Shown piece by piece: positions 4,801 to 60,241 of a stretch of DNA of 64,000 bases. Positions within the stretch are counted from its first letter, which is position 1. The number at the start of each line of letters is the position of its first letter. Made by a program: the position numbers and the translations under genes. The DNA comes from an uncultured virus (IMG/VR IMGVR_UViG_3300029305_005254) (taxonomy: Duplodnaviria; Heunggongvirae; Uroviricota; Caudoviricetes): IMG/VR virus record IMGVR_UViG_3300029305_005254. One strand, written 5' to 3'. Below the pieces are notes generated by a model that saw only the letters and a list, made by a program, of their open reading frames with translations, did no database searches and was not told the origin of the DNA.

Positions 4801-4817
4801 TGTACAACCTTTCTATT

Positions 4818-4988: not shown

Positions 4989-5007
4989 TTGTCATAGATA
5001 ACCTCCT

Positions 5008-5682: not shown

Positions 5683-5687
5683 TCCTC

Positions 5688-6035
5688 CTAAATCCTGAAT
5701 ACTAAAACACCTTTTTCTCTAAATATAGGGAAACATTCCAATACAGTGGATAACATCTTTTTATAGAGTTCGCTCTCTATAGGGAAGAAAAACTCTTCAT
5801 ACTGCCTATCCGTACTTTTCTTAGTAGGTAATATTAAATTTTTACCTTCATTTAAACCTTCTATCTCTTGATAAATATCCTGCTTGCTAGGTAAAACTAA
5901 ATAAAACCCCTTCTCATTATTTTTATATAACTTGATTTTATTTAATTTTAAACTATCTTCAAAAATAATGCTACATACTGCTAAAGATTTTTCTTTTCTG
6001 CTAAATTCCTCAAAAATTATCTTAGTTATATTCAT
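5688..6035 (-). CDS. SpoVG-like nucleic-acid-binding protein
   Basis: LAVCSIIFEDSLKLNKIKL...GFYLVLPSK...FFFPI matches the SpoVG pattern. Confidence 0.7.
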   Translation of the reverse strand: MNITKIIFEEFSRKEKSLAVCSIIFEDSLKLNKIKLYKNNEKGFYLVLPSKQDIYQEIEGLNEGKNLILPTKKSTDRQYEEFFFPIESELYKKMLSTVLECFPIFREKGVLVFRI

Positions 6036-6047: not shown

Positions 6048-7004
6048 CTATACATACAACTTTCCAAACTTCTTATATATCTTACCTAAAGCGACTGCCT
6101 TATCTATATCCTTCTTTTTATAATACTTAAGTACATATGAGACTTCAGCACCTTGATTTGCTTTTATGAAATCCCTTATATTCGTAGGTACTACCACAAC
6201 TTCTTCCTTTTTAGATTCTAACTCATCAATACTGCTTGGTATAGATTCTGTAAACTCATCAAAAGGGGGTAACTCTTCTTCTATTGTATCTTCTACAACG
6301 TCATCCTCAAATGTAAAATCTTCAAGAGGAAAATCTTCACTACTCTCGTCAATTAGCTTCTCAGGTTTTACCCATTCGTCTATAAAGATTCCATAAGGAA
6401 CAGTATCTCTCATCACCAATTTAGAACCTATATCTCGCTTCTCTGACTTTTTAAATATCTCATCAAACCTAATAAGATTCTCCTTTATATGTTTTCTCCA
6501 AGTATCTATAAAAATACCATTGCTTGTGTAATCTTTTAAACAAGGTTGCCACTCATCTATAAAGATACCATGCACTATTTCTATTGCACTTTGTTGTGTA
6601 GGTTTATCATTCTCTGGTTTAGCTATATTTTGTACTAAATTTAAAAATGTACTTGGTTTAAAAGATTCATTAACATCCTCGTTGTAAGAAACACTTTCCA
6701 TTTCTAATGAAACATTTTCATTTTCTAAATTATCTTCCTCTAAAAACCTAAGTAAATCTTCTATTTCTAATTCATTATTTTGATTTTCTAAATCTTTAAT
6801 TTCAAATAAAGAATTTTCTGAAATTATATCATCACCATATAACTCTTCCCTTTCTATATTTAATTGTTTTATCTCATCTCTCATAAATTGATTGAAAAAA
6901 GTATTATATAAGGTATCATAAGACAAATTTTTGCCTTCAGAAGATACCCTCATATAATACTTCATATTAAGAATTGCTGTCTCTATACTTCCTTCAATTT
7001 TCAT
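6048..7004 (-). CDS. Acidic hypothetical protein with GIFIDxW repeats and a basic C-terminal domain
   Basis: Three GIFID(E/T)W motifs; C-terminus is possibly a winged helix. Confidence 0.7.
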   Translation of the reverse strand: MKIEGSIETAILNMKYYMRVSSEGKNLSYDTLYNTFFNQFMRDEIKQLNIEREELYGDDIISENSLFEIKDLENQNNELEIEDLLRFLEEDNLENENVSLEMESVSYNEDVNESFKPSTFLNLVQNIAKPENDKPTQQSAIEIVHGIFIDEWQPCLKDYTSNGIFIDTWRKHIKENLIRFDEIFKKSEKRDIGSKLVMRDTVPYGIFIDEWVKPEKLIDESSEDFPLEDFTFEDDVVEDTIEEELPPFDEFTESIPSSIDELESKKEEVVVVPTNIRDFIKANQGAEVSYVLKYYKKKDIDKAVALGKIYKKFGKLYV

Positions 7005-7022: not shown

Positions 7023-9323
7023 TTACTCTCCAAACAAATCCCAAAACTCAGAATCTGCATCTAAATCTGAAGAATTACTATCTAATTCTCCTGTTGACAT
7101 ATCACTTTCATAAACACTATTACCACTATTAAAACCACTATACTCAAAAGAGCTAACACCATTAGTATTATCTCTTGGAGGTGTTACACCTTTGTTTGCT
7201 TTTACACCTTTAGTAAGACTACCACCAATCATACCATTTATTTTAATACACTCACAATCTGGTTCTAATTTCTTCCATACACCACCTATAAAATCAAATA
7301 ACTTTTTATTACCTTCATTAGATGTAGACAGTACCTCTGCGTGACAAAATACTGCCTGACCACTAGCAATATCTTTAGTTTTAATAGCCATATCACCCTT
7401 ATTAACCAATGAATAAGGGAATTCTTTCTTTGTAACACCCATTGCATTTTTTATCTCTTCTTGATTAAGCTGTCTTACTACTGCTCTACTAGATACAAGA
7501 GAATATGTATTCTTACCAATAACACTATCTACAATACGATGTGGGAAAAGTATTACCCTAACTCCTACATATCTTAATTTTGATACCGCTGTTGACATAA
7601 GATTCTTAAATCTATTCTGCTCGTCCTTATCATTTAATGCAAAATAATCCATTAAAGACATAAGCTCATCTACCACAACATACATATATGGCATTTTATT
7701 TTGTGGATTCATTTGATTGTATTCCTTTATGTTTACACAACCTGCACTATCTAACATATTAGACCTTTCAGTTAAAGCTGTATCTATTACTGTTTGAATA
7801 CCATCATTTATTCTTCTAGGGTCTCCACAAAAATACTTAGTGTGAGGTAAGGCTTCAGCTAGATACCTGTAGTCAGATGCTGTATTCTTGTGGTCAAAGA
7901 AATAAAATTCTAACTCTTTAGGTGAATTAAACATACTTAACTGAGCTACTATTGACTGACCTTTCCAAGACTTACCACCATCTGCCTCACCTGAAATAAT
8001 AATACTGTCACAATTTATTAAATCACAGTATAAAGGCTTTCCAAATTCGTTTATACCCCATACAAAAGGCATTATATTCTTTGGATTTAACACATAACTA
8101 GATATCTGCTTATATACATCGCCTAAAGAGATGGTTATAGCACCATTCTCACCGTAGGCTGTCCCCTTGAATATATTTATTGTAAACTTTCCTACTGTAG
8201 TCTCTACTGTAGCATAAACACCTGACCTAATTTCCATATTATTATCATCTCTACTAAAGGCACTTGCAATTTCGTCTGCTATTTGCTGCTCCTTTAATCC
8301 TACAGGTCTTGAACAATTTAACCTATAAATGAAATCATTTTCATATAGAGTTTCTAACTCTGGAATAGATTCATCCTTAGTACCAACTTGATATGCTGCA
8401 CTCCTTAGATAATCTTCAAACATAAAGAAAATGTCTGAACCCTCAGAAACTTGTAACATCTCAGAAAAACCTGGAGTTATTGTTGGTAAAACTTTTATAA
8501 ATGTTTCATATAGATATTGCCTTGTCTGAGTACCATAAGCAATCTCAGTTACATTAGCTAATGCATCTTCTACACTAAAATCACCATTATTTACAACAGA
8601 ACCACTATAACTATAAGAATCACTATCATCTTCTAACAGAGATAGCCACACTGATTCATCTTCTTCAATAAACTCCTCTTCAGACGCTTGCCAACTCTCT
8701 TCACCTGCTGGCTCATCATCAAATAGAAAATCATAGTTATCTGAGGTTGGGAAAGCATCTTGATAATCATTACTAAAACTTTCTGTGTCACCCTCTACCA
8801 CATCTTTATCATTCCACATACATAATGCAACACCCACTATCATAGCTAAAACTGAACCTATAGTTAAATCCATAGGGCTGTTACCCTTCTGGGTGAAACA
8901 TTCTACAACTGTCATAATTAGTCCAAGAATTGAAAGTATAATACAGTTCTTAACTATTCTTACCCCTAGAGCGTGCCAATCTCCCTCCTTATTATCCTTA
9001 AAAGATAAAAATAAAGCTTTGGCATATCTAAAGACACCTTTACCCGCTGCTATTGTACCATCTATAATATAATCCTCTGTTGATTTAGGGGCTTGATAAC
9101 CCTGCTGTAAGTTATTGTTGTTCTGATTTTGAGAATTATAATTATTTAATGTAGTATTTATATCTGTGCTATATAAATCACTTACCCCTTGTTCTGCTGA
9201 AGATGAACCTTCTGGCATAGAATCAAAAATATCTCCCCAACCATCATCACTACCTTGACCTGGTGCATTAGAGGGTGGGTTTTGCCTAAAATCCCTCTCA
9301 GCTCTAGCATTTTCATATGCCAT
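7023..9323 (-). CDS. FtsK/SpoIIIE-like membrane ATPase; candidate TcpA-type conjugative coupling protein
   Basis: Two N-terminal TM helices; GEADGGKS Walker A; FFDHK; YVVVDE Walker B; RYVGV; lies next to virB4. Confidence 0.75.
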   Translation of the reverse strand: MAYENARAERDFRQNPPSNAPGQGSDDGWGDIFDSMPEGSSSAEQGVSDLYSTDINTTLNNYNSQNQNNNNLQQGYQAPKSTEDYIIDGTIAAGKGVFRYAKALFLSFKDNKEGDWHALGVRIVKNCIILSILGLIMTVVECFTQKGNSPMDLTIGSVLAMIVGVALCMWNDKDVVEGDTESFSNDYQDAFPTSDNYDFLFDDEPAGEESWQASEEEFIEEDESVWLSLLEDDSDSYSYSGSVVNNGDFSVEDALANVTEIAYGTQTRQYLYETFIKVLPTITPGFSEMLQVSEGSDIFFMFEDYLRSAAYQVGTKDESIPELETLYENDFIYRLNCSRPVGLKEQQIADEIASAFSRDDNNMEIRSGVYATVETTVGKFTINIFKGTAYGENGAITISLGDVYKQISSYVLNPKNIMPFVWGINEFGKPLYCDLINCDSIIISGEADGGKSWKGQSIVAQLSMFNSPKELEFYFFDHKNTASDYRYLAEALPHTKYFCGDPRRINDGIQTVIDTALTERSNMLDSAGCVNIKEYNQMNPQNKMPYMYVVVDELMSLMDYFALNDKDEQNRFKNLMSTAVSKLRYVGVRVILFPHRIVDSVIGKNTYSLVSSRAVVRQLNQEEIKNAMGVTKKEFPYSLVNKGDMAIKTKDIASGQAVFCHAEVLSTSNEGNKKLFDFIGGVWKKLEPDCECIKINGMIGGSLTKGVKANKGVTPPRDNTNGVSSFEYSGFNSGNSVYESDMSTGELDSNSSDLDADSEFWDLFGE

Positions 9324-9340
9324 AATACAACCTCCTTATT

Positions 9341-9487
9341 TTAAAAAGCTAATCCAAATATTACATAAAATATACCTATTAATATAAAAACAGCACCTGA
9401 CACTACTTTCTCATTCTGTGTAAAACTTTTATCTTCCATCAAGTGAGATGCTAATATAATGTACAATGCTATAGCAACAATTGACAT
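9341..9487 (-). CDS. Small two-TM membrane protein, 48 aa (MSIVAIALYIILASHL...IFGLAF)
   Basis: Fills the gap exactly; GAGGTGGAG upstream; two hydrophobic segments. Confidence 0.7.
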   Translation of the reverse strand: MSIVAIALYIILASHLMEDKSFTQNEKVVSGAVFILIGIFYVIFGLAF

Positions 9488-9488
9488 A

Positions 9489-10496
9489 CTACTCCACCTC
9501 TCCCTCTTCTACAGGTGATACTTCTTCTACAACTTCTTCTGTAGACTCCTCTGTACCTCTCATTTCTTCTACATAATCAGCACCCTCTTGCATATACATT
9601 CTATTTATATAATTAACCATAAGAGTACCATCTGTGTAGCTACAAATATCATTCAAATCTTTATCTATTGAAACTAACCAACCTGTATCTAAATCAGGAT
9701 ATTTTTCTACTGTAAGATTTATTGTTACATTTCGAGTAACTGCCTCATCACTTCTATAATAATTTAATACATAATCATATAAGTACATTTCACTTTTTGT
9801 AGAATCATTTTCATCGTTATGATATATGTATAGATTGTTGTAAATCTCTTCCTTATCTTCTTCCCAAAAATTTTTATTAGTTAAATCCAATACAGTTAAT
9901 TCTATTGTAAATACTTGTTTATTTTCAGCAAAAATAGTGGTGTCAACTACCCTTACTACTTGGATAGACAACATCACTTCCTTGTACATATTTCTAATAA
10001 AGGAATCATAATAATCTGAAGATAAATCTGATGAATCAAAATAACTCTGGTAAGTACTTACGACTGTACTATTTCTTGAATACTTTTGAGCCATACTTAA
10101 ATCTAATGTTCTTAAACCGTTTAAGTAAGAGTATATAACATCTTCAGCAGTTAAACTTTTATCTCCTAGAGATAAAATAGAACCGTCAACATCCCATACA
10201 TACCCTTCTGGTAATTCCCCATAAGTGGCTATCAAATCTTCTTGTATAGTTATTAAGTAGGCATCGTTTCTCCCATCTTGAGATTCTGTATTACTTGGAG
10301 TATTCTCCAAAGATTGAGCATACTCCTCAGCTCTTTTTAAAGCTTCTTCCTTTTTTCGTTTCTCTTCTAAACTAGATTTTAATCCTGATATTAGTATTAT
10401 ACCCACCAATACTACCAATATTGCAACTACCGACTTTTTAGTGTCACTAAAAATACCTTTGAACAACTTTTTTACTTTTTCTAAAACCTTTTTCAT
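9489..10496 (-). CDS. Bitopic membrane protein; candidate VirB8/TcpC-like channel subunit
   Basis: N-terminal TM, coiled coil and extracellular alpha/beta domain; sits between the virB4-like and coupling ATPases. Confidence 0.45.
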   Translation of the reverse strand: MKKVLEKVKKLFKGIFSDTKKSVVAILVVLVGIILISGLKSSLEEKRKKEEALKRAEEYAQSLENTPSNTESQDGRNDAYLITIQEDLIATYGELPEGYVWDVDGSILSLGDKSLTAEDVIYSYLNGLRTLDLSMAQKYSRNSTVVSTYQSYFDSSDLSSDYYDSFIRNMYKEVMLSIQVVRVVDTTIFAENKQVFTIELTVLDLTNKNFWEEDKEEIYNNLYIYHNDENDSTKSEMYLYDYVLNYYRSDEAVTRNVTINLTVEKYPDLDTGWLVSIDKDLNDICSYTDGTLMVNYINRMYMQEGADYVEEMRGTEESTEEVVEEVSPVEEGEVE

Positions 10497-10513
10497 TATA
10501 CAACCCTCCTAAA

Positions 10514-12607
10514 CTACTTTTCTATTGATACACCTGTTTTGAATATTTCACTATTGCTTATATGTTCTGGTAACATAACCTTAACTATTGTAGAAACACT
10601 TTTATCTAAATGTACCATAAAAGCCTTATCATATATACTAGACAATTCCTCATCACTATCAAAACTTTCTGAATTACCATGCTTAGTTACTAAGGCATCT
10701 AAATCAGGCTTTAATAAAGGAACAGATAACTGTTTACATAACCTCTCTCTTGTCTCAGCACTTGCAATAGCTCCAATTGCAAAAGAAGAAACATTATCAA
10801 ATATAGCAAACTTATCATCATCTAAAAGCTCTTTTACATTATTAGTTACTATAAAGTTAACATCACCAAGCTTTCTACCACCTGTTACTGCTGTTTTTAT
10901 AGTTGTAGCTGAACCTGGGAATGAACCCCATCTCTGAAACTCTTCCCATACCTTAAAGTTAAACTTTCCTTGAGCCTTTGAAAATATACTTCGTATATAT
11001 GATATATTTGCTGCTGATAATTGTGATAAAGACATCTGAGTTTTATCTATAGTATCAGCAGATTTACCTGCCATACCAAAAGAGTTTATAACCAACTTAG
11101 CCTCAACTATATCCTTTAAAGTAACTTTCTTTCTAAATACATTATTTCTTATACCACCTTTTTCTAAAGGTTCAAAGTATTTTGAAAGCTTAGCAACTAC
11201 CTTATCTAATGCATTAAGGTATCCTGGATTAAGTTTATATCTCTCGCTTAACTCTAAATCATTGATATCTGTTATTCTTTGTTGTAAATCAAAATATTCT
11301 TGATATAACTCCTTAAATTTTGAGTACACATAGAACAAACCACCTGAATCTTGAGTGTATGTCCAAGATAACATATTATCCTCTTTTACCCCTAAATCAG
11401 CATAAGCCTTAGCTATTGCATTCTCCACAATATTCTCTGCCCATATATCTTCTGATAACAACTTCTCTCCAATTAAAACACATAAATATGAGCTTGTAAA
11501 ACTTTTACTTGTTTGAAACATATCCTCATCTAATATAGGATTACCTGTTAATACTATCTCAAATGGGTCGTAATAACATCCCTGACCTTCTGCCATATTT
11601 AAAACTACAACCTTGCTACAATTTGCCACATAAGAACCAAAAGGTATGTACTCAAAACCCTCAATATCATTGATAGTACCATTATAATCATCTGATGCAG
11701 TTAATTGAGATATTAAAAATTTTAATAAGTAAGATTTACCTCCACCTGTTTCAGCTGATATAAGAATTGTCTCGGCATCTGTAACATTCTTTTTAAATTG
11801 TTTATACACAGTAAAACCTGAGTAAATGTCTGTACCAAACATTACACCACCTTTACCAATTCTTCCTTGTTTATACCCACTGAATCTTGCTAACTGCTCA
11901 TCTGGTATAGTATTACTTCCAACCTTAGATAATATACCATTACCCAATTCCATTGAGAATGGGCTAAAAGCTCTTAAAAAATCTTGTATTTGCTCTTCTA
12001 CTCTTGTTATCAGTATTCCTTGGTTTTTACAATATTCTTTAACTCGCTCTATAGTCTTATCAAAGGCATCCCCTCTTTTACCTGCTATAACCATTAAGGT
12101 TCTATACTTAAAAAGATTTCTTCTTCTCCTTCTATCTGCGTCTGCTAGATATAACAAAGAATCTTTTCTTCTTTGAGTATTATCCATTGTCCCCATATGG
12201 TCTATATAATTATACTCGTCTACATTCTCTGTATTGTTATCTAAAGACCTCCAAACCCTTAATTTAGAACGCATCTGAGGACTATCCCAATCTATCTTAG
12301 TAGGTTCAAAAGTAGATATAAAAGATATTTTAACCCCATCTCCTGCTTCTAATCTTATCTCTGATTTAAATTTTATCGGAATTTCAGCTGGATACCCATC
12401 TATAGTGTAGTAATAGGTTATTAAATCTTTTTCACTCATAGTAGCATTACCATTTGAGTAGAAATTATAATTTCTTCTTTTAGGGTAAGTACTTACATCT
12501 CTTTTTATGTTCTTTATTATTTGCGATTTCCACAATTTAATAGCTGGTATTCTAGTTTTAGAATTTTCTACATTACCATAAAAACCTAGTAAACCTTTTC
12601 TTGCCAT
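10514..12607 (-). CDS. virB4: VirB4-like type IV secretion ATPase
   Basis: AETGGGKS Walker A; INDIEG; YYDPFEI; VWEEFQ Walker B; GRKLG. Confidence 0.8.
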   Translation of the reverse strand: MARKGLLGFYGNVENSKTRIPAIKLWKSQIIKNIKRDVSTYPKRRNYNFYSNGNATMSEKDLITYYYTIDGYPAEIPIKFKSEIRLEAGDGVKISFISTFEPTKIDWDSPQMRSKLRVWRSLDNNTENVDEYNYIDHMGTMDNTQRRKDSLLYLADADRRRRRNLFKYRTLMVIAGKRGDAFDKTIERVKEYCKNQGILITRVEEQIQDFLRAFSPFSMELGNGILSKVGSNTIPDEQLARFSGYKQGRIGKGGVMFGTDIYSGFTVYKQFKKNVTDAETILISAETGGGKSYLLKFLISQLTASDDYNGTINDIEGFEYIPFGSYVANCSKVVVLNMAEGQGCYYDPFEIVLTGNPILDEDMFQTSKSFTSSYLCVLIGEKLLSEDIWAENIVENAIAKAYADLGVKEDNMLSWTYTQDSGGLFYVYSKFKELYQEYFDLQQRITDINDLELSERYKLNPGYLNALDKVVAKLSKYFEPLEKGGIRNNVFRKKVTLKDIVEAKLVINSFGMAGKSADTIDKTQMSLSQLSAANISYIRSIFSKAQGKFNFKVWEEFQRWGSFPGSATTIKTAVTGGRKLGDVNFIVTNNVKELLDDDKFAIFDNVSSFAIGAIASAETRERLCKQLSVPLLKPDLDALVTKHGNSESFDSDEELSSIYDKAFMVHLDKSVSTIVKVMLPEHISNSEIFKTGVSIEK

Positions 12608-12619
12608 AACAAAACCCTC

Positions 12620-13834
12620 CTACTTGCTAAAACTTAAAGCTTCATAAGCAGACTTGTAATCTCTTAAATACATACGCTCTCGTTGTTCTACTTCTTTAGG
12701 GTAATCTTCTACATGAGATATAGTGAACATACTACCCTTAACTTCCTTTGGAAACATACTATACATAGCTTTTATATTAAAGTTCTCTAAATATGCTTCG
12801 CTTGCTAATGCAAACTTAACTGAACTACCCTTACAGTTCAATAAATGTTTGTTACTAGCCTTTAATTTGTCTAACACTATAAATGTATCATAATCAGCGT
12901 CATTTAATAACCTCTCCATTACATCTTTAGTAGGAAAGTTTGTAAATACAATATCACTATAATAACCTTTCATGGTATTTGCTGATGCTTGAGTAACCCA
13001 ATCATATTCTCTGTACATCGCTTCATACTGTTCTCCCACTGGACATAGTATTATTAACTTAGTTTTTAGCAATTTTGCACTTTCTAAATAAAGCCTTAGT
13101 CCTAGCATAAAAGGTACTAAATGAGGGAACATACCTATCTCTTTAACCCTTATTATATTGGACTCCTTCATATAAGATACTATTGGAAAGAAAAAAATAC
13201 TTTGAGAAGAAGTAATATTAGTTTTAGGAATAGTATCTTTCGCCTCCTTTAATTTTGCTAGAGTTTCTTCTAACTTTTGTCGTTCCTCTTCAACCTTAGA
13301 AACTAAATTTGCTGAATTAGCAAAAATCTCTGTAGCAGTCTCTGATAATTGTAATAACTCTAAATCTTTCTGCTTATAGTCCTCGACCATACCTGCAACT
13401 GCTGACTTGACCACAGAAAGATACTCTTTATTAAAACTAGAACTACCATCTCGCAAATACCTGTTAAAAAACTCACTAACAGTATTTACCCCTCCTAGTT
13501 CGACTATTGCTGTAACACCACTTAAGTTATCTATCAAGTTTCTTAACTCTGAACCACTTTCTAAGAAGAATTCATCATCAAAATACTTACCTCCTGAACC
13601 TACTACAATCATCTGTATAGCTGTTTCAACAGATTCACGCTCACGAATGTATATCATAGTCTTAGCTAGTTTTTTCAACTGAGTTAAGTATTTTACTTTC
13701 TCTTCTTCACTTTCATTACTCTTATGTATTACCAAACAATCAATCTCACCTGTTAAAGATAGAACATCTTTTAACTTAGGTAATTTCATAAAACCACTAT
13801 AATTTATAGCATTATTAGATACAACAACATACAT
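12620..13834 (-). CDS. Hypothetical protein (receiver-like N-terminus, coiled coil, degenerate P-loop-like C-terminus)
   Basis: Central heptad region; DYDTFIVLD; no Walker A. Confidence 0.6.
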   Translation of the reverse strand: MYVVVSNNAINYSGFMKLPKLKDVLSLTGEIDCLVIHKSNESEEEKVKYLTQLKKLAKTMIYIRERESVETAIQMIVVGSGGKYFDDEFFLESGSELRNLIDNLSGVTAIVELGGVNTVSEFFNRYLRDGSSSFNKEYLSVVKSAVAGMVEDYKQKDLELLQLSETATEIFANSANLVSKVEEERQKLEETLAKLKEAKDTIPKTNITSSQSIFFFPIVSYMKESNIIRVKEIGMFPHLVPFMLGLRLYLESAKLLKTKLIILCPVGEQYEAMYREYDWVTQASANTMKGYYSDIVFTNFPTKDVMERLLNDADYDTFIVLDKLKASNKHLLNCKGSSVKFALASEAYLENFNIKAMYSMFPKEVKGSMFTISHVEDYPKEVEQRERMYLRDYKSAYEALSFSK

Positions 13835-13848
13835 TTTTAATACACCCC

Positions 13849-15336
13849 CTAAATACCGATTCTATTTAACCAACTACCATTTGCGAATAGACACATATTA
13901 GTTAACCTATCGATATCATATTGATTATAATTATTTAAATCCAAAAGACAAGTATCCATTATAAGCTTCTCCTTAGATAAACTTAAGTTACACCTAGAAG
14001 TTAATAATTTAGTTGTAGATATGTAATCCACTAAATTCCTTCCTGGATTTAATATTATATTGTTATTAAATAAACAATATTCAGATAATACAGAAACACA
14101 ATCTAATGGACAATAAATATATACCATATCATATTGATGAATTAAAGAACTATTAAGCACAGAATCTATATCTTTCTCATTCATACAAACCCCATACTCA
14201 TTTGATATTACATCTATATTACCTACTCTAATAGGATTAAAAGCATTTAAGCTACAGTTATACCCTTTATTTTCTATATAAGAGAGTAGAGCTCCTTCTT
14301 TATAGTCTGCATTTATTATTAACACTTTAGCATTATCAATAGTTGCTATTTTATCAGCTTCTTTCATTAAATCTTCGTGAACAGAACTATTTCTTAAAGA
14401 TAGAATTATGTCTATTTTAGACTTTGCTTGTATACTTGGACTTTGTAATACTACATTATTTACAACTTGATTACTATTTGAATCAGGTTGTATAGTAGGT
14501 TGGGAAACAATAAAACTCTCCTCTTTATCAACCTTTACCTCTTCTCTGCTTTTAATAAACTCTTTTAAATCTTCCTCGTCATCATCGTCTAAAAATCCAG
14601 TGTCAGAATGACTACTTCCAAAAGAACCTAAAGATAAATCTTCACCCATATCACTAAAATTATCTTCCAAATCATCTCCCACACCAACCCTAACTGGACT
14701 AACATTGTTGAAATCTGATTTTATAAAATTTTCATTTGAAAATACTTTAGAAATATTAAGCATTTCCCCTGTATTAACAATAGAAGAAGAGGTGTTATCA
14801 GAGATTATTTCTTTTGAATTATCTCCATACATCTCTCCTGAATTTGAGCTAATGCTTTCATCTATCTCACCACTAGAATAAGAATCTAAATTTTTACCTA
14901 AATTATTATATATCTCCTTTTTACTAGGAAAATAAGTTTCTTGTATATATACTATCTCATGAGTTAAAAGCTCTGCTAGAGTTCTAGTTGTGGCTGTACC
15001 CATTTCGGCTATGGTGTACATAGGAGAATTGAATACTTTACAAAAGTACTCCATTACTTCTCTAGCATTATCGAGTTTTGAATTGATGATTACTACCACT
15101 TCTGTGGAAGAAGAATAGTTTTTTATAAAGTCATTTAATTCATTTAAGTCCCCTACAGTATCCTTTATTATAGTATTAGATATAATTATTCTTTTAAAGT
15201 TTAAATGTCTTAAACTAGCCTCCTTAACAATATCCTGAATAGTATCAAAAGTATGAAAAGTAATATTGTCTAAAGCCTTACATATATTTGCTATTGCACC
15301 CTTGCTACTTTTACCTATTGAAAAACATACAACCAT
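13849..15336 (-). CDS. Degenerate MinD/ParA (CpaE/TadZ-like) protein
   Basis: KVLIINADY and YDMVYIYCP resemble MinD-family motifs; no GKT. Confidence 0.5.
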   Translation of the reverse strand: MVVCFSIGKSSKGAIANICKALDNITFHTFDTIQDIVKEASLRHLNFKRIIISNTIIKDTVGDLNELNDFIKNYSSSTEVVVIINSKLDNAREVMEYFCKVFNSPMYTIAEMGTATTRTLAELLTHEIVYIQETYFPSKKEIYNNLGKNLDSYSSGEIDESISSNSGEMYGDNSKEIISDNTSSSIVNTGEMLNISKVFSNENFIKSDFNNVSPVRVGVGDDLEDNFSDMGEDLSLGSFGSSHSDTGFLDDDDEEDLKEFIKSREEVKVDKEESFIVSQPTIQPDSNSNQVVNNVVLQSPSIQAKSKIDIILSLRNSSVHEDLMKEADKIATIDNAKVLIINADYKEGALLSYIENKGYNCSLNAFNPIRVGNIDVISNEYGVCMNEKDIDSVLNSSLIHQYDMVYIYCPLDCVSVLSEYCLFNNNIILNPGRNLVDYISTTKLLTSRCNLSLSKEKLIMDTCLLDLNNYNQYDIDRLTNMCLFANGSWLNRIGI

Positions 15337-15348
15337 ATCAAAATCTCC

Positions 15349-16437
15349 TTACTCATCTAAATTTATTTCGTCATCCCAATTAAAATCTTCACCTAAATCT
15401 CCTATATCTGGATATACAGACTGCTTACTTAGTTTTCTTCCTTGCTGTTTTTGTATCTCCACTCTTCTTTCTTCTAAAGCTCTTTCTTCCCGTTTTTCCT
15501 TTAGTGTTTTACCTAATGTTTCTACCTCTCCATTAGCCTTTTCCAACCTGATAGGAACAATACCTGAACTTAGCTTAGAATCAAAGGAATTAAGCATTGC
15601 AAAAACTGCACTAAACTCTTTAAGATTAAATACAGATTTCGGTAGTTCTCGTAACTCCTCTTCATTAAGTAACTGATAACTTCTGTAATTTGCTTGCATA
15701 AAACAATTAAGTATAGATTTAATAGTGTTCCAAGCAACCCTGTCACTGCCTTTCCATAAGAACACATATGCATCATAAGTTGTTACCCTTTTAGACATTT
15801 GGTCTTTCTGATAACTGTATATATCTGTTAATAAATCCCTCATATCAGGGTTACTTACATTATTTAAAGACTCAAAACTTGCATCTAGTCTTTCATCATT
15901 ACCTATTACATCCATATAATCTACGTGACACATTTGTATATTACTTGAACCACATATATTATATGCGTCTGCTATAGCTTCGAAATGTTCATGCTCAGCA
16001 TCATTATACTTTCCTAGAATTACATCTTTATTTAACTTTACTATAATACCACTCTTACCATTTCTAAATCTACAAATATATGGATATTGATTAGATATGT
16101 CATAAATACCCCATATTTCTCTTATGTTTAATTTATAGTCGTTATCCTTTATTGTGATAGCTTCTGATCTAACATTACCTTCCTTTAATAGAAAAAACCT
16201 TACTATGAAAATAGTGAAATATATAATCACCACACCTATAGCAAAATTAGTTAAGAAAAATCCTCTCTTGCTAAAAATAGTACCTATACCTATTATAAAA
16301 CCTATTATCATTATAACCACAGACCATATTTTAGTAGTACTTACTTTATCTCTTCTCCCTCCTGAGTAATCAAAAGTTAAAGGGAGAATTAGAGTAGTTT
16401 GACCTTTCCTTGGTCTCATTCCTGATATATCTGACAT
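15349..16437 (-). CDS. Two-TM transfer-region protein (VirB3/PrgI/TcpE-like position)
   Basis: Two N-terminal TM helices plus a cytoplasmic domain; start moved to the ATG at 16437 on RBS spacing. Confidence 0.5.
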   Translation of the reverse strand: MSDISGMRPRKGQTTLILPLTFDYSGGRRDKVSTTKIWSVVIMIIGFIIGIGTIFSKRGFFLTNFAIGVVIIYFTIFIVRFFLLKEGNVRSEAITIKDNDYKLNIREIWGIYDISNQYPYICRFRNGKSGIIVKLNKDVILGKYNDAEHEHFEAIADAYNICGSSNIQMCHVDYMDVIGNDERLDASFESLNNVSNPDMRDLLTDIYSYQKDQMSKRVTTYDAYVFLWKGSDRVAWNTIKSILNCFMQANYRSYQLLNEEELRELPKSVFNLKEFSAVFAMLNSFDSKLSSGIVPIRLEKANGEVETLGKTLKEKREERALEERRVEIQKQQGRKLSKQSVYPDIGDLGEDFNWDDEINLDE

Positions 16438-16450
16438 ATACAACCTCCTA

Positions 16451-16876
16451 TTAAAAACTTAAATAACTATAAGAAACTACAGTTAATAAAACAAACACAA
16501 CAATCTCTAGAACTATATACCCTATTGAGAAGATTAACAATAAGTTTCTTATGCAAGATATTACAAACTTTAATGCTAATATAGTAGCCTTAGTAGATAC
16601 TTTTGCAATAGGCATTATCACTTCCATTGTAGTTTTAGCTGCATTATTTATTGTAACCGATGCTTTAGCTATAGTATCTACAGAATTCTCTACAATAGTA
16701 GTATCTTTATCTGTTTTAGACAAGATACTTTTACTAGCTTCTGCTACTTCAACATCCAACCTTGACTTTATATCAGCAACTCTCTTACCCACTTGGTAAG
16801 AGAGTTCTATACCTACTAACGATAATTTTAATGCTAATTCTAATAAGGTTAAAAAGATTATTAAAGCTATTAACAT
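16451..16876 (-). CDS. Membrane protein
   Basis: Hydrophobic N- and C-termini. Confidence 0.65.
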   Translation of the reverse strand: MLIALIIFLTLLELALKLSLVGIELSYQVGKRVADIKSRLDVEVAEASKSILSKTDKDTTIVENSVDTIAKASVTINNAAKTTMEVIMPIAKVSTKATILALKFVISCIRNLLLIFSIGYIVLEIVVFVLLTVVSYSYLSF

Positions 16877-16887
16877 ATAATCACCCC

Positions 16888-19800
16888 TTAATTTTCTTGA
16901 TTAGAACCTAGCTTTTTACTACCTGATTTAATTGTATTGTTTATTCTAGATGTACCTTCTTTAGAATTCTTTTTATTTCTATCTGACTTGCTTTCTCTGT
17001 AAGTTTCTCTAGTAGCCTCATTTATTCTAGCTGATTCTTCGTGTTTTCCTTCAGCTACATCAATACTTCCCCTTTGAGCTGCTCTAGATGATACCTTATT
17101 TGAACCTGTTTCGTTATAAGAACTTCCACCTAGAGAAGAACTACTTCCATTCTTTGCATTAGATATCTTACTAGAAACAAAACCACCTACTTGAGAGAAT
17201 GTTCCTCCTATTGCACCTGATACAAACGATTTAGCTAATGAGAAATTCTGTTTTACATCAGACCAAACATTTTTTATTATCTTCCAATATAATGCTATGC
17301 AAATAAGGTCTAACGCTGTTATAATTAACATAACTATAACTGGGTCACCCATTTGTATTACAATCTGTTTACTTTGAGTTACTGCATTATTTCCTGTACC
17401 CATAAACAGTGATAATATCCAAGCAAATCCTACATTTATAGCTAAATAAGATACCATTGGAACTAATAAACTCTTTATTAACTTAGGTATGAATTTTTGT
17501 CTTGGGTCTACTCTAAATGCTGTTACTAATATTAATAATATTGAAGATACAAATATTAACATTATTATAAATATCTTAACAGCTGGCAGAGCATACTGAG
17601 AACAAATATCACTTATTATATACATAATAGCTGTAGTTGTACTAGATTTCTCTACTACTGCCATATAAAAATCTTCTTGATTGGTTAAATCTTCACCCAA
17701 TGAATTTGCTAAGATAAATCTTAAAAATGCATCGTAAGAAAAGTTACTTATCTCAAAACACTGAGGGTATAAATTTATACTCTCACCTAATAAGTTTGTT
17801 TCACTAAACACAGAATTAAATACAAATGTACAATTTATTGCTGCAGATGTATTTAAGGTTAAATCGCTAAAATTATAATAGTTAAGTAACTCATACATAC
17901 TTTCTTCCATTTGTCTATTACACTCTAAAATCTTTCTCTCCACTTCAGTTAAGTCAGCTTCTGTTAAACCGTAATTAGCCATCTCACTTTCAGAAAATAC
18001 CATTGGTCTAGCCTCAGGATAACTTGCTGGGTTTATAGGGTCTTGAACAACATATTTTTCCCCCATTACTGTAATTGTCTCTGGCTGAGCATAAGAACAA
18101 TCATACATTAAATCTACCCATGGGGAGTATATGTTGTACAATCTTGCTACATTAAGATTGTGCCAATATTTCTGCTGTAATTCAGGACTTGCGAGTATAT
18201 CTGGGTCATTTTGATGCCCCTCTTCAGTAGGAACACCTTCATATATGAATATTCCATAAACATCATCCCACTCTCTAACTATATCATTACCTGCTTTTAA
18301 GTAAGGTATTATATATGTAAACAAAGATCTCATATCCATAAAATCCTTTAATTCCCCATTACCATAATACTCTTTAGTACCTTGCTGAGATACTGAGATA
18401 CTGTTACTATCACTTAAATTGTAGAAGAAACCACCGTCTTCTTCCCCTAATAATAAACTCTTATAACCTCCCTTTGCACCTGAAGATGTACTCATACCCA
18501 TATCATATAAGCACCATGAATAATAGTAGTAAGGACTTTCAGACATTAAACCATAAGCTGCAAGACCTGAAAGCTCTTTTTCTACATCTGAACCATAATG
18601 AGCAAAAATATCTACTAAACCATCTCTATCTTTTGCATTTGTTGTTAATGTGTCGACAAACTCTTTATCTGATACATTAAACATAGCTAAATCAAAATTA
18701 AACAAATCTTGGTGTAGACCTACATAATCATTAATTGTTAAGTCTTTGATAGTTCCTTTTTGAGATAAAGCATTGTTATAAATGTGACTTGACATAGGCT
18801 TTATTAATCTTAAATCTTTTACACTCTTGTTAGTGTAACCATAAGCTACATCCCATAATAAAGAACTTGACATACCTGCTATGGAATCCTGTAGGCTAGA
18901 ATTTAAATTATCTGTACAAACAGTGGAGTAAGAGTCCTTAGTACCATTATCTATACCATAATAAATAAATCTACTAAAGTTGCCCAAATCTGTGTAGCTT
19001 CTATACATATATAAAGCATCTGAATTTAGATAATATTCCCCTGACATAGTATTTGTATTTAATACTAAGTTTAACAATCTTGAATTAGATAAACTATCTA
19101 AAACAGTCTGGTCTTTAGAAGTTAAAGCTAGAGATGCCATTTTCTTAGGGGCTTGCCACTTTAATACAATAGAATCTCCACCCTGGTTAGCATAAGTTGA
19201 ATTATTAATAGCATATAATTCCCTCAAATAATTAGAATATGTCTCAGCATTTATAGCATCGTCTAATTTCTTAACATAAGATTCTTGTTGTATTACTGCC
19301 CAATAGGTAAATTTATTACTATAAATTTTTTGAGATATGCTGTTACCTATACTTACTGCATTACTCATTAAAGAAACAGGTATGAATAAAAAGACTGCAA
19401 AAATTATAACCCCAAAAATAGCCTTTTGAATCTGTAGAATACCTGCTACATAAGAAAATAGCATTATAACAATCATTGCTACTATTAAATAAGGTATTAT
19501 TTTATTATATAAATTTATTAAAGTAGCAGTCCATTGTATTTCTGATAAATCTGGTGTTGTTACAAAACCTATAGCACTTCTATACTGAGTAGTTCCTGAT
19601 ATTGCACCTACCCCATTGGTTCCTACCATATCATTGTGCCAACCTACTAAAAGAGCATTTGTCTTATTCTTTATAAGTAAGCTAACATAATCAAGACCTT
19701 TTGTTGGGTGTAGTAAATAGTAAGTCCAATCTCTTATTTGTTTCTCCAACATAAGAGATTCCATATTGTTTGGTATTTCTATGGCATTATTATCTATACT

Positions 19801-21882
19801 TACTAACTCTTCCTTATTTATCCTAAAACCTAGTTGACCTATAGTATTTTTCTTATCTTCCGAAGAACTACCATACAATCCTGCTATAGCATAAGTAGAA
19901 TATAAAGATGCCGTTGCACTCTCACTAACATTTATACTACTGTTTATAGAACCTGACTGGATAACGCTAAAACCATTTACAAAACCATTTAAAGGATCTT
20001 CTTTAAAACTTTCTAACATTAAAGGAGTAGTACCATCCTCTGACATATATTTATCTACATTTAATACTGAAAAATCTGATTTTCCACCACTATCAAATTT
20101 ATAAGCTCCCAAATTATCTATATAAACTAATTGATTTATAAACTCAAAATCACTATCTGCATTATATATAGTATCCGTGTACCAACAAGATATTGAAGAT
20201 ACATCATACTTATTACCTAAATCATCGTCAGCACCGTATATACCATCTATACCATTATCCTCATCTCCTGCAACAAAATCAGGCAAAACATCTGCCTCGC
20301 TATCTCTAGTTCTATTGCAAGATGCAAAATAAGAAAAATCTTCTGGGTTATTTTCCTGAAAACCTCTTTGAGCTTTTATTGCAATACTATAAAAATCTGC
20401 ATCTTTTGTAAAAGTACCCATTACAATTTCTTGTAATTTATACTCACCTGAACCTCTTAACACCCTTAAAGGAAAACCTTCCCTGGTCTCACCTATAGAA
20501 TTATCTGCATACCAATTGCCTGATACATGTATTGTCTCAGATGTTTCAATTTCTTGCAATTTACCTCTTATATTTGACAAGTCAGGTGTTCCTAACATTG
20601 TACCATGGGAATATCTTTCCGCCAATAACTCGTCTTTTAGTACAAACTCACCTGAGTCTGCTAAACTCATAGAATAGAAATTAATAAGATTATAGTATTT
20701 TCCACTAGCTTCATCCCTATCTTTACCTTCTTCATCTACCAACTTCCATGTATAAGGATTCATACACCCTGGAACAGCTATATACTGGTGATTAAAACCT
20801 TTTTGTATTATACTTCCAAAACAATCTACATACATGCTAGTGCCATATATACTACAATTATACACTTCTGATTCAGATAAATTAGAAAGAATACTTTGTA
20901 ATTCTGAAGAGTCTTCGGCTTCTTTAGATGTGAAATCAAAAAAACTGAAACCGTACCCTTTAGATATGTCTACAGATGCTAAACATTGTAAAAAAGATAT
21001 TTGACTTGCAGTGAATTCATTTTCAAATGAACAATCAAACATAGGTATTACATTACCTTTTTCATCCTCATAGCAAAAATATCCATACTTATAATACTCT
21101 TCTCCACTTCTCTTTAAGTCAGCATAAAAATAACTATAGTTTTCGCCTGTATCTATATTCTCACCATAATAATCTTTATGTAATATACTATTTATAGTTG
21201 GGTTAGACCAAGAAAACACTATAGATTCACTTGGAATATCTTCATCACCAAAAGGATAGGAGTACATGTAAGATATAGGAGGTGATTGATATTCAACAGA
21301 ACCGATTTCAGGTATCTCTATCACTCCAAAGTTTATATCATACCCTTGAAATACAGCTTCGTACTGACCTAACATAAGTCTTAAAAAGTTAAAGTAATTT
21401 ACTTTAAAGTTTTTTACTTCTACTAGATTCTCCCCTGAGTGATCTGTACCTACATAGAACTTAAGCTCCTTGCAATTACTTCTTGATAAGCCCATTATCT
21501 TCTCTGCTAGCAGATAAGCTGTCTCTTCTTCAAACTTCATATTATTTTGAAGAGCCTCTACCATCTGATCAACTATTTCTTCATTTTTTTCTGACTCTGT
21601 GACTCCAAGCTCTGTTCCAAAAGGAATGTAAAAATTAGATAAATATACCCCTAAAAATCTTAATTCGTCTTCTGTTAAATCTTCTAGGTAGTTTATTTCC
21701 CCATTAGTACTCTGCCCCTGTGCTAACTTAATAAATGTACCTACCCTATCATTAGCTCCGTCTGCCTGAGCTCTCTCAAACATAAAATTCACTAAACTTG
21801 TATACAACAATGTCAATACTGCTAAACTTAAAGCAATATACCCCTTTGCCTTTCTATACCACTTCTTAAACTTTAACTTCAT
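16888..21882 (-). CDS. Giant polytopic membrane protein, candidate extended VirB6-like
   Basis: Signal/TM segment, two large soluble domains separated by TM pairs, C-terminal TM cluster and charged tail. Confidence 0.55.
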   Translation of the reverse strand: MKLKFKKWYRKAKGYIALSLAVLTLLYTSLVNFMFERAQADGANDRVGTFIKLAQGQSTNGEINYLEDLTEDELRFLGVYLSNFYIPFGTELGVTESEKNEEIVDQMVEALQNNMKFEEETAYLLAEKIMGLSRSNCKELKFYVGTDHSGENLVEVKNFKVNYFNFLRLMLGQYEAVFQGYDINFGVIEIPEIGSVEYQSPPISYMYSYPFGDEDIPSESIVFSWSNPTINSILHKDYYGENIDTGENYSYFYADLKRSGEEYYKYGYFCYEDEKGNVIPMFDCSFENEFTASQISFLQCLASVDISKGYGFSFFDFTSKEAEDSSELQSILSNLSESEVYNCSIYGTSMYVDCFGSIIQKGFNHQYIAVPGCMNPYTWKLVDEEGKDRDEASGKYYNLINFYSMSLADSGEFVLKDELLAERYSHGTMLGTPDLSNIRGKLQEIETSETIHVSGNWYADNSIGETREGFPLRVLRGSGEYKLQEIVMGTFTKDADFYSIAIKAQRGFQENNPEDFSYFASCNRTRDSEADVLPDFVAGDEDNGIDGIYGADDDLGNKYDVSSISCWYTDTIYNADSDFEFINQLVYIDNLGAYKFDSGGKSDFSVLNVDKYMSEDGTTPLMLESFKEDPLNGFVNGFSVIQSGSINSSINVSESATASLYSTYAIAGLYGSSSEDKKNTIGQLGFRINKEELVSIDNNAIEIPNNMESLMLEKQIRDWTYYLLHPTKGLDYVSLLIKNKTNALLVGWHNDMVGTNGVGAISGTTQYRSAIGFVTTPDLSEIQWTATLINLYNKIIPYLIVAMIVIMLFSYVAGILQIQKAIFGVIIFAVFLFIPVSLMSNAVSIGNSISQKIYSNKFTYWAVIQQESYVKKLDDAINAETYSNYLRELYAINNSTYANQGGDSIVLKWQAPKKMASLALTSKDQTVLDSLSNSRLLNLVLNTNTMSGEYYLNSDALYMYRSYTDLGNFSRFIYYGIDNGTKDSYSTVCTDNLNSSLQDSIAGMSSSLLWDVAYGYTNKSVKDLRLIKPMSSHIYNNALSQKGTIKDLTINDYVGLHQDLFNFDLAMFNVSDKEFVDTLTTNAKDRDGLVDIFAHYGSDVEKELSGLAAYGLMSESPYYYYSWCLYDMGMSTSSGAKGGYKSLLLGEEDGGFFYNLSDSNSISVSQQGTKEYYGNGELKDFMDMRSLFTYIIPYLKAGNDIVREWDDVYGIFIYEGVPTEEGHQNDPDILASPELQQKYWHNLNVARLYNIYSPWVDLMYDCSYAQPETITVMGEKYVVQDPINPASYPEARPMVFSESEMANYGLTEADLTEVERKILECNRQMEESMYELLNYYNFSDLTLNTSAAINCTFVFNSVFSETNLLGESINLYPQCFEISNFSYDAFLRFILANSLGEDLTNQEDFYMAVVEKSSTTTAIMYIISDICSQYALPAVKIFIIMLIFVSSILLILVTAFRVDPRQKFIPKLIKSLLVPMVSYLAINVGFAWILSLFMGTGNNAVTQSKQIVIQMGDPVIVMLIITALDLICIALYWKIIKNVWSDVKQNFSLAKSFVSGAIGGTFSQVGGFVSSKISNAKNGSSSSLGGSSYNETGSNKVSSRAAQRGSIDVAEGKHEESARINEATRETYRESKSDRNKKNSKEGTSRINNTIKSGSKKLGSNQEN

Positions 21883-53018: not shown

Positions 53019-53028
53019 TCTTACCCTC

Positions 53029-53709: not shown

Positions 53710-53715
53710 ATAAAG

Positions 53716-60214: not shown

Positions 60215-60241
60215 AAGGACATATCCCCTTTCTATACACCA

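Follow-up and report, generated by a model that had tools for sequence, protein, structure and literature searches.

The window analyzed here is the whole 64,000-nucleotide stretch of IMG/VR record IMGVR_UViG_3300029305_005254, filed as an uncultured virus, and its subject is a cluster of nine genes that appear to code for a DNA-transfer (conjugation) apparatus. The window has a G+C content of ∼32% and a strongly negative GC skew, and practically all of its long open reading frames (ORFs) lie on the minus strand. The nine genes are co-directional, minus-strand, and packed at positions 7023 to 21882, with intergenic gaps of 1 to 18 nt in the ORF list. In order of transcription they code for a 1664-amino acid (aa) giant membrane protein, presumed to be a channel or wall-spanning core (16888-21882); a 141-aa membrane protein with ∼3 transmembrane (TM) helices (16451-16876); a 364-aa protein with two TM helices, which from modeling is likely the membrane anchor of VirB4 (15349-16443); a 495-aa protein whose consensus motifs suggest a degenerate ParA/MinD-like C-terminal domain (13849-15336); a 404-aa protein predicted from an AlphaFold2 model and VIA-align comparison to be a TadZ/CpaE-like pseudo-ATPase (12620-13834); a 697-aa divergent VirB4-family ATPase, recognized by its family profile (10514-12607); a 335-aa bitopic protein with a modeled NTF2-like ectodomain (9489-10496); a 48-aa hydrophobic peptide with one or two TM helices (9341-9487); and a 766-aa FtsK/SpoIIIE-type ATPase, recognized by Pfam and a family profile (7023-9323). 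A first-pass annotation had described these genes as a non-canonical T4SS (type IV secretion system); all nine are present where it placed them. Promoter-like sites are not enriched over shuffled sequences (32 versus 38.6 and 41 versus 38.1), and there is a single minus-strand terminator-like site at 27234-27221.

The 697-aa ATPase has no TM helix and contains a Walker A motif, AETGGGKS (residues 285 to 292; 11732-11755), and an EE variant of Walker B, WEEFQ (residues 554 to 558; 10934-10948). Residues G290, K291, D314, E556, and R578 are invariant in 79 members of the family, and the two motifs are therefore genuine catalytic motifs. The annotation had singled out WEEFQ as a departure from the usual Walker B; the departure is real but merely a conservative EE-for-DE change, with KVWEEFQR placed by hmmalign against LYFDELQV of PrgJ, the VirB4 of plasmid pCF10. 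The lone sequence gives nothing but P-loop noise against PDB and a sub-threshold DUF87 match in Pfam; the family profile matches the Thermoanaerobacter VirB4 structure 4AG5 (E 2.4e-20), followed by DptH (1e-5), the coupling protein 6o1w (1.7e-5), EccC (3e-3), HerA (0.056), and TrwK (0.15). The family hidden Markov model (HMM) also matches PrgJ with 81 bits over both the N- and C-domains, as well as Tn916 Orf16 with 52 bits. Pfam matches among 72 representatives of the family are spread over DUF87 (44), P-loop_TraG (14), AAA_10 (11), and FtsK_SpoIIIE (9), with none to CagE_TrbE_VirB and with 23 proteins lacking any match. By these profile comparisons the protein is a true but very divergent VirB4. 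In a FastTree phylogeny of 84 rows the 81 tip-family sequences (named for the pXO16 locus described below) are separated from PrgJ, Orf16, and pCW3 TcpF by a branch with SH-like support of 99, with long branches. The window VirB4 thus does not nest with these proteins, a comparison that spans three Gram-positive references and does not by itself define a mating-pair formation (MPF) type.

The 766-aa ATPase is organized with a disordered N-terminus, two TM helices (residues 118 to 171), an acidic linker, and one motor domain, with Walker A at 7968-7991 and Walker B at 7665-7682. It matches Pfam FtsK_SpoIIIE (E 1.3e-7), and its family profile matches EccC (1.1e-22), FtsK (7.5e-17), and the coupling protein 6o1w (6.5e-12) in PDB; the family HMM also recognizes TcpA of pCW3 (44.7 bits). 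Residues G445, G450, K451, and E553 are conserved in at least 90% of 69 FtsK-like sequences. The predicted architecture is that of TcpA, unlike EssC, and the protein is presumed to be the coupling protein and DNA pump. There is no TrwB/TraG-type match among the window ORFs (Pfam); an FtsK-type ATPase is found instead of a VirD4-type coupling protein. The earlier reading holds in that the module resembles a T4SS for DNA transfer, in which VirB4 is accompanied by a TcpA-like ATPase replacing VirD4.

Related loci are numerous and similarly organized. The VirB4 relatives form 382 clusters at 90% identity (at most 79% identical, on contigs of up to 273 kb), and there are 220 among 1.84 billion representatives at 50% identity. 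A pattern scan yields 4 IMG/VR contigs together with 136 metagenome stretches encoding a relative, of which 80 were kept; the contigs of these 80 reach 388 kb, and five of them are titled 'human gut metagenome'. Fifty-six related loci from the metagenomes and IMG/VR have complete 10-kb flanks and are treated as full length, and all 56 have the same order on one strand: giant protein, 364-aa protein, 495-aa protein, 404-aa protein, VirB4, 335-aa protein, FtsK-like ATPase, (318-aa protein), SpoVG, and helicase. The identical order in every full-length locus puts the cluster far beyond chance. As detected by BLAST, VirB4, the FtsK-like ATPase, and the 364-aa protein are present in all 56, the giant and 404-aa proteins in 53 each, the helicase in 52, the 335-aa protein in 49, and the 495-aa protein in 38; the 364-aa protein is thus as universally conserved as both ATPases. 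One 140-kb IMG/VR relative is syntenic with the entire window, and six DNA runs labeled 'feces metagenome' contain 55 to 95% of the sampled words of the window, with no RNA run listed. The sole match in a single-protein scan of genome contigs, 52 residues long and in a chromosome of Singulisphaera, is spurious.

Cultured relatives are found among Bacillus plasmids. A tblastn search of 72,556 plasmids with the 697-aa ATPase matches 21 records, all from Bacillus, and the ten best are a ∼350-kb Bacillus thuringiensis plasmid with 40.6% identity over 97% of VirB4 (E 3e-150). One sequence of this plasmid, pBTHD789-1 (NC_018516.1), is that used for pXO16 according to the figure 7 legend of PMC6199540. 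Window positions 3208 to 27187 are collinear with the pXO16 region called tip (for transfer of israelensis plasmid) across 17 window ORFs, with 24 to 41% protein identity. The pXO16 genes run from a clamp-loader-like AAA ATPase through small ORFs, the YdjM hydrolase, a pair of membrane paralogues, and the giant protein to the 2-TM protein, two receiver-type proteins, a VirB4-like ATPase, a bitopic protein, a ∼50-aa peptide, an FtsK-like ATPase, SpoVG, and a DEAD/SNF2 helicase; an annotated 52-aa coding sequence (CDS) occupies the position of the 48-aa peptide. HMMs of the gut family recover all seven core pXO16 counterparts with 98 to 1183 bits (giant protein, 1183; VirB4, 747; FtsK, 590; 364-aa, 360; 335-aa, 276; 404-aa, 257; 495-aa, 98), and the VirB4 proteins of the window and pXO16 share a 33-row clade in the FastTree phylogeny (SH-like support 98). 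The FtsK counterpart is 26% identical across residues 7 to 690 of the 766-aa protein, the giant protein is 35% identical to a 1834-aa pXO16 protein over residues 658 to 1664, and identities elsewhere are 35% (YdjM), 37% (285-aa paralogue A), 36% (264-aa paralogue B), 36% (335-aa protein), and 40% (helicase). To judge from this correspondence, the cluster is related, distantly but gene for gene, to the tip locus and is no new mating-pair type. The favored interpretation, with a probability of roughly 0.8, is that it serves mating and DNA transfer on a giant plasmid-like element whose host is a low-GC Gram-positive bacterium of the gut, and that it is orthologous to pXO16 tip.

What is known of the tip locus is given here from two reviews. 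The locus spans 25 kb and 16 CDSs, was delimited by bioinformatics and experiment in work published in 2018, and is described as a novel T4SS with two ATPases and a cell wall hydrolase, TipB, for which the relaxase and oriT are unidentified (PMC9673590); the suggestion of a new mating-pair type is thus superseded by a type that, according to these reviews, was already delimited experimentally. A demonstrated role in conjugation is known for pXO16 only (PMC9673590, PMC6199540). The reviews further describe very fast and efficient transfer and the mobilization of plasmids lacking mob and oriT and of chromosomal segments of up to 791 kb, moved without integration (PMC6199540, PMC9673590), and they report that the DNA transferred by pXO16 is single stranded and that the mechanism has a distant relation to T4SSs, as in pCW3, with an intact single-strand origin being important for the plasmids that it mobilizes (PMC6199540).

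Both the window and pXO16 represent giant, one-strand, phage-like plasmids without a recognizable relaxase, although they differ in several respects. The window element is from feces or gut, and pXO16 resides in the Bacillus cereus group. Following the giant gene, pXO16 alone codes for a 710-aa protein with a weak NlpC/P60 match (L001:12556-14688; E 7e-4), which on our assumption is probably TipB, and for two ∼200-aa ORFs. The pXO16 counterpart of the 495-aa protein is only 306 aa, lacks the ParA-like C-domain, and matches the N-terminal part only. A more distant group comprises 215-kb Bacillus velezensis/amyloliquefaciens plasmids (for example, NZ_CP076292.1) and 136- to 155-kb Bacillus subtilis-group plasmids, which code for a giant protein, a 2-TM protein, an AAA_31 ParA-like protein, a VirB4-like ATPase, and an FtsK-like ATPase in the same order. 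They differ in that VirB4 is only 24 to 26% identical (24% for the 215-kb B. velezensis plasmid), the FtsK-like protein is 1114 aa long, and the gut-family HMMs recognize VirB4, FtsK, and the 2-TM protein alone (the last with 31 bits for the B. velezensis plasmid).

The better-characterized conjugation systems of Gram-positive bacteria share parts of this organization. The Tcp locus of pCW3 (NC_010937.1) likewise codes for an FtsK/SpoIIIE-type coupling ATPase, a VirB4, a YdjM-family protein (TcpI; Pfam YdjM, E 3.5e-27), and bitopic and small membrane proteins. The window YdjM protein has no direct BLAST match to TcpI, however, and the link is common membership of the Pfam family only. TcpF is an AAA_10 protein (5.9e-78), no sequence counterparts of TcpC, TcpH, TcpD/E, or TcpG are found in the window, and pCW3 has a relaxase, TcpM, but neither TadZ-like proteins nor a giant protein. 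PrgJ of pCF10 and the Thermoanaerobacter protein 4AG5 are the closest VirB4s found, and PrgJ too has merely a weak DUF87 match in Pfam. In pCF10 the coupling protein (PcfC) is of VirD4 type and the relaxase (PcfG) of MOBP type, alongside the hydrolase PrgK and the VirB3-like PrgI; none of the four is detectable in the window.

The 364-aa protein contains a conserved N-terminal motif, a TM hairpin (residues 33 to 89), and a cytoplasmic domain of ∼240 aa. It has no sequence match in Pfam or PDB, the family profile finds nothing significant in PDB, and its sequence resembles neither PrgI nor the extensions at the N-termini of PrgJ and Orf16. A model of its complex with the VirB4 N-domain scores ipSAE values of 0.82, 0.83, and 0.83, compared with 0.00 for the best of three controls; of 157 solved complexes 116 reach the mark used, as do 2 of 215 mismatched pairs, a calibration that is only rough with the alignments used here. 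The model has ∼340 contacts, at least 94% of which agree between runs (partner pLDDT 76), and the interface on the 364-aa protein is formed by the conserved N-terminal motif and the cytoplasmic domain, with a modeled pairing of strands between residues 171 to 175 of this protein and residues 95 to 100 of VirB4. The modeling supports docking of the 364-aa protein on the VirB4 N-domain, with a likely role as the membrane anchor of VirB4, possibly similar to that of VirB3. The idea that it is a split-off VirB4 N-terminus was discarded, as hhalign against the PrgJ and Orf16 N-extensions gives a probability of 0.1 to 0.2.

The giant protein was initially described as polytopic, and it does have six or seven TM segments in a hydropathy scan, although these are in three clusters (residues 15 to 35, 788 to 846, and 1425 to 1537) separated by two large loops. 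It is organized with an N-terminal anchor, an ectodomain of ∼750 aa, a TM hairpin, a conserved ectodomain of ∼580 aa, three or four TM helices, and a basic Ser/Lys-rich tail, and this TM pattern is kept in all 12 homologues inspected. There are 335 clusters of homologues, none of them named, and no credible Pfam domain in any of 23 homologues; PDB gives no sequence match outside the low-complexity tail and nothing significant with the family profile, and there is no sequence similarity to TcpH or Tn916 Orf15. It is presumed to form the channel or wall-spanning core, possibly in a VirB6-like role. The 141-aa protein evolves fast and is detected by BLAST in only 3 of the 56 full loci, with a small ORF at the same position in an IMG/VR relative. 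The 48-aa peptide has one strong TM segment and a hydrophobic N-terminus.

The 335-aa protein has one TM helix followed by a long helix, an NTF2-like ectodomain (residues 113 to 290), and an acidic tail. Its AlphaFold2 model (pLDDT 86.4, pTM 0.71) aligns in VIA-align with NTF2-like proteins (Z 9.4 to 7), among them TraM of pIP501 (4ec6; Z 7.6, rank 20) and the VirB8 homologue CagV (Z 7.0, rank 40). There is no sequence match to TcpC or PrgL, the family profile finds nothing significant in PDB, and the best Foldseek match has an E value of 9e-3. A VirB8/TraM-like role is possible, and the modeled fold is compatible with it but not specific.

The 404-aa protein consists of a receiver-like domain (residues 1 to 108), a long helix of ∼85 residues (116 to 199), and a MinD/ParA-like domain (223 to 404). 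Its AlphaFold2 model, built from 31 sequences, has a pLDDT of 79.2, and the C-domain aligns in VIA-align with HypB (Z 9.9; root mean square deviation [rmsd] 3.7, 171 residues aligned), NifH (9.8), BcsQ (9.6), MinD (9.5; rmsd 3.5, 169 aligned), and FlhG (9.1); the N-domain aligns with the receiver domains of RitR and KdpE (Z ∼9). The Eubacterium rectale two-domain protein 3fkq (TadZ) aligns with model residues 1 to 402 (Z 9.2). TadZ/CpaE proteins of Tad pili likewise combine a receiver-like N-domain with an atypical MinD/ParA-like C-domain, and the modeled fold is that of a TadZ/CpaE-like pseudo-ATPase. The arrangement of the domains is different, given a whole-chain rmsd of 12.6 Å to 3fkq, and unlike 3fkq the 404-aa protein has the ∼85-residue helix between its domains, no nucleotide-binding P-loop, and the context of a T4SS rather than a Tad pilus. 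The family lacks a Walker A motif, with no GK[ST] in the consensus and IKEIGxCxYLTSF at that place. A PDB profile search with the 404-aa family finds nothing significant, the ESM Atlas gives no usable match, and Foldseek with the 335-aa and 404-aa models gives no match at an E value of ≤0.001.

The 495-aa protein has an N-terminal alpha/beta domain, an acidic linker, and a degenerate C-terminal domain, for which a ParA/MinD-like nature is partly shown by sequence motifs. The family consensus (GxRGSGxT ... VLIVDLD ... YDxVxxDCP) contains a lysine-less remnant of a P-loop, and in the window copy, with SLRNSSVHE at the P-loop position, even this remnant is lost. The profile comparison with MinD is not significant (E 0.34), and the leads in the ESM Atlas are clusters of the CbiA, ParA, and AAA_31 families. 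The two had been annotated together as MinD-like proteins, which stands at the level of the fold for the 404-aa C-domain and only in part for the 495-aa protein; neither has the lysine of the deviant Walker A motif (KGGxGK[ST]). Paralogy of the two proteins finds no support (hhalign probability 0.3).

In the apparatus as we would propose it, a hexameric VirB4-family ATPase without TM helices would sit at the cytoplasmic face of the membrane, tethered by the 364-aa protein, which in the model wraps its N-domain. Carrying two TM helices and one motor domain, the FtsK-type ATPase would serve like TcpA as coupling protein and DNA pump, as suggested by homology and architecture. The membrane and wall channel would be built from the 1664-aa protein, three signal-peptide/2-TM paralogues encoded upstream (see below), the 141-aa and 48-aa proteins, and the 335-aa protein as a VirB8-like scaffold. 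The 404-aa and 495-aa pseudo-ATPases would be TadZ-like positioning or scaffold factors rather than motors, because they have no P-loop lysine, the fold being demonstrated for one of them and the role suggested by analogy. DNA would be processed by a non-canonical enzyme; by analogy with pXO16 as described in the reviews, the substrate would be single-stranded DNA, perhaps including DNA without an oriT.

No relaxase was reported in the first-pass annotation, and none of 60 window ORFs matches a relaxase family (Pfam, E ≤ 0.01). Families PF03432 and PF02486 are absent from both records searched, and PF03389, PF01076, and PF08751 are absent from all five (pXO16 and four relatives, two of them listed as complete by IMG/VR); controls responded in each search. 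An atypical relaxase is possible among the many unannotated ORFs, as exemplified by TcpM, which escapes standard profiles. The relative G001 codes, outside the synteny with the window, for a 1126-aa protein (L011:14471-17851, minus strand) with AAA_30, AAA_19, and UvrD_C_2 matches in its C-terminal half and an unannotated N-terminus of 620 aa, an architecture that recalls relaxase-helicase fusions. As a candidate relaxase-helicase it was rejected, as it has no pXO16 counterpart and elsewhere has RecD-like helicase matches only. The 318-aa protein encoded directly downstream of the FtsK gene (6048-7004) was also rejected as a relaxase, being acidic, repeat-rich, and poorly conserved, with no HUH-like motif by eye.

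Streptomyces TraB systems move double-stranded DNA without a relaxase. The FtsK-like ATPase could work in this manner, with VirB4 and the membrane proteins building the junction only; this would account for the relaxase negatives in the window, pXO16, and the four relatives and for the typing of all 21 cultured-plasmid relatives as non-mobilizable (MOB-suite), and the FtsK profile scores as strongly with the double-stranded DNA translocase FtsK (7.5e-17) as with the coupling protein 6o1w (6.5e-12). The mobilization by pXO16 of plasmids without mob or oriT and of chromosomal segments up to 791 kb, in the reviews cited above (PMC6199540, PMC9673590), is also in keeping with it. However, TraB-type systems need neither a conserved VirB4 nor a large channel set, pCW3 and Tn916-type elements likewise use FtsK-type coupling ATPases yet have relaxases, and the escape of TcpM-like relaxases from standard profiles, with many ORFs unannotated, weakens the negatives. 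The annotation had regarded double-stranded DNA transfer and a distant relaxase gene as both open, and this choice is narrower than it held, as the review reports single-stranded DNA transfer by pXO16 and a role for the single-strand origin (PMC6199540). Relaxase-free transfer of double-stranded DNA is thus improbable here, and transfer by a pXO16-like mechanism is preferred.

Several points weigh against the interpretation as a plasmid-borne, tip-type transfer module. The element is known from sequence alone. For five of the seven core proteins, no transfer protein of pCW3, pCF10, or Tn916 is similar in sequence; the VirB4 family HMM does not match TcpF of pCW3, and pairwise BLAST of VirB4 against PrgJ, Orf16, and TcpF finds nothing. 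No window ORF matches the 710-aa hydrolase candidate of pXO16, and no such hydrolase family is found among 60 window ORFs (Pfam). The score of the VirB4 complex may in part reflect likeness to solved VirB3-VirB4 assemblies, and the NTF2-like fold of the 335-aa protein is very common, with VirB8-type chains ranking only 20th and 40th. Lastly, IMG/VR files four relatives (G001 to G004) as viral, either as 'provirus' or by direct terminal repeats, and neighboring clusters in the ESM Atlas are labeled 'Viruses, Uroviricota'.

This classification raises the question of whether the element is a huge phage or phage-plasmid in which the two ATPases and the membrane proteins serve packaging, virion membrane assembly, or DNA delivery. 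The almost one-strand gene organization and replication genes of a phage-like kind (DNA polymerase, DnaB, primase, topoisomerase II, ligase, and clamp loader) are consistent with such a phage, and PMC6199540 mentions that pXO16, too, has been suggested to be phage-like. The size of the window's own contig is at most ∼150 kb, and complete relatives are 180 to 225 kb. One of these, G003 (180 kb, with direct terminal repeats and CheckV completeness of 100% per IMG/VR), has 190 of its 193 ORFs on one strand, and the 137 ORFs that lie beyond the tip region and reach 100 aa have PHROG matches to replication, partition (ParB-like and actin-like), anti-restriction, and kinase families only. At the thresholds used, head, tail, connector, packaging, and lysis families are matched by none of these 137 ORFs and by none of 59 window proteins, the sole exception in the window being a coiled-coil match to a tape-measure family (E 2.5e-4). 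The window itself codes for an actin-like (ParM/Alp-type) protein and a 672-aa coiled-coil SMC-like protein (58250-61437, minus strand), which together with the ParB-like gene of G003 argue for plasmid-type partition. In PDB the ATPase profile matches a conjugative VirB4 best, with the next match behind by 15 orders of magnitude; VirB4 finds no match in a phage database; and the orthologous pXO16 locus is required for conjugation according to the reviews. Structural genes could be hidden among the unannotated ORFs, but a phage is quite unlikely, and the plasmid reading is favored because a complete 180-kb relative contains no virion or lysis family. From its gene content, this family of elements probably consists of giant plasmids with phage-like replication, systematically misfiled as viruses.

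A type VII-like system for protein secretion, centered on an FtsK ATPase of EssC/EccC type and with no DNA transfer, would fit the best NCBIfam matches of the 766-aa protein, which are EssC/EccC models (E 4.5e-11 to 2e-4), the EccC chains that top its PDB profile search (1.1e-22), and the FHA-domain protein, Ser/Thr kinase, and PP2C phosphatase encoded 30 to 45 kb away in the window. The EssC score of 41 bits is nevertheless set against a cut-off of 778, the 766 aa contain one ATPase domain compared with three in EssC, and no WXG100, EsaA, EssA, or EssB family is found among 60 window ORFs. With a VirB4 as the partner ATPase and an orthologous pXO16 locus that is conjugative in the reviews, protein secretion is very improbable. 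The possibility raised at the outset that the ATPases are of the type VII or HerA type is thus not borne out, given the VirB4 profile match and the single-domain FtsK-like protein.

pXO16 is the only studied example of tip-type transfer, and within the literature searched no paper links it to metagenomic or gut elements. The machine described here is conserved gene for gene in hundreds of fecal and gut metagenome contigs, providing a comparative framework for pXO16 with invariant residues, a minimal conserved gene set, and a ParA-like domain and TipB that appear dispensable. Added to the published picture are the family size and conservation of gene order, the profile-level demonstration of VirB4, two predicted folds, the YdjM family shared with pCW3, the lack of relaxase and virion-gene matches in complete relatives, and the modeled VirB4-anchor interaction; this interaction, like the TadZ-like pseudo-ATPases, is concrete enough to be tested. 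With relatives typed as non-mobilizable or viral, the system is a possibly important but unannotated route of gene transfer in gut Firmicutes. More tentatively, and with considerable doubt, tip-type systems may be a widespread class of relaxase-independent (or novel-relaxase) conjugation in Gram-positive bacteria, carried on 130- to 390-kb phage-like gut plasmids misfiled as viruses and able to move chromosomal DNA and oriT-less plasmids. Their parts not seen in other T4SSs would then include a separate VirB4 anchor with two TM helices and a 240-aa domain, the TadZ-like pseudo-ATPases, and a wall-spanning protein of 1600 to 1800 aa, and through such machines genes would flow in gut microbiomes by a path that has been overlooked.

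Genes upstream of the cluster, beyond position 21882, belong to the system, and all are on the minus strand. They code for a 264-aa paralogue B with a signal peptide and two TM helices (21901-22695); a 285-aa paralogue A with a signal peptide, a variable ectodomain, a PFSGPI motif, and two TM helices (22697-23554), to which paralogue B is 32% identical (E 2e-20); a YdjM-family membrane metal-dependent hydrolase (23577-24284; Pfam YdjM, E 1.9e-17); and a 264-aa protein with a signal peptide, ectodomain, and two TM helices (25064-25858). The last is a weak third paralogue, with a BLAST match to paralogue A at an E value of 4e-5 in a three-sequence database; its final 50 aa are 44% identical to pXO16, and its product is possibly a channel or pilin-like subunit.

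Downstream, also on the minus strand, the 318-aa accessory protein has a GIFID[ET]W repeat that occurs three times, and its C-terminal domain is small and basic; phmmer finds it in 25 of 69 ORFs directly downstream of FtsK, and a role as adaptor of the coupling ATPase is conceivable. A SpoVG-like protein (5688-6035) and an SNF2/DEAD-type helicase (3208-4800), both recognized by Pfam, are present in 29 and 52 of the 56 loci, respectively, with 224-aa and 56-aa ORFs between the SpoVG-like gene and the helicase region. These neighbors (3208-6035) are possible DNA-processing partners. Adjacent to the helicase, gene 1936-3207 (minus strand) codes for a protein of 423 aa, secreted and anchored in the membrane, whose Cys (AACGYF) and His (GAHWIAVDG) motifs recall those of papain/C39-like peptidases. 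Its matches to Peptidase_C39_2 (E 0.12) and in PDB are all non-significant, as is that of a paralogue in an IMG/VR relative (E 0.68), and it is a candidate substitute for the missing wall hydrolase TipB.

Surface and regulatory functions are encoded elsewhere in the window. A 1632-aa surface protein (45996-50894, minus strand) contains a signal peptide, Ig-like Big_13 and Big_3_3 domains, and a C-terminal TM anchor, and it could, by analogy with the aggregation phenotype of pXO16, be a mating adhesin. Adjoining it are genes for a full sigma-70 factor (44777-45718) and an ArdC-like anti-restriction protein (43419-44408). A signal peptidase I of the S26 family (36332-36799) and a protein containing a T-Q ester-bond domain, as is typical for surface adhesins of Gram-positive bacteria (41806-42327), are also on the minus strand. 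The Ser/Thr kinase, which has a TM segment, the PP2C phosphatase, and the FHA-domain protein (51348-54399, minus strand) form a trio that is kept in IMG/VR relatives. The most conserved window gene relative to an IMG/VR relative (73% identity) is 54537-55748 on the minus strand, which codes for a 403-aa protein that has no Pfam match and matches a PHROG related to DNA methyltransferases.

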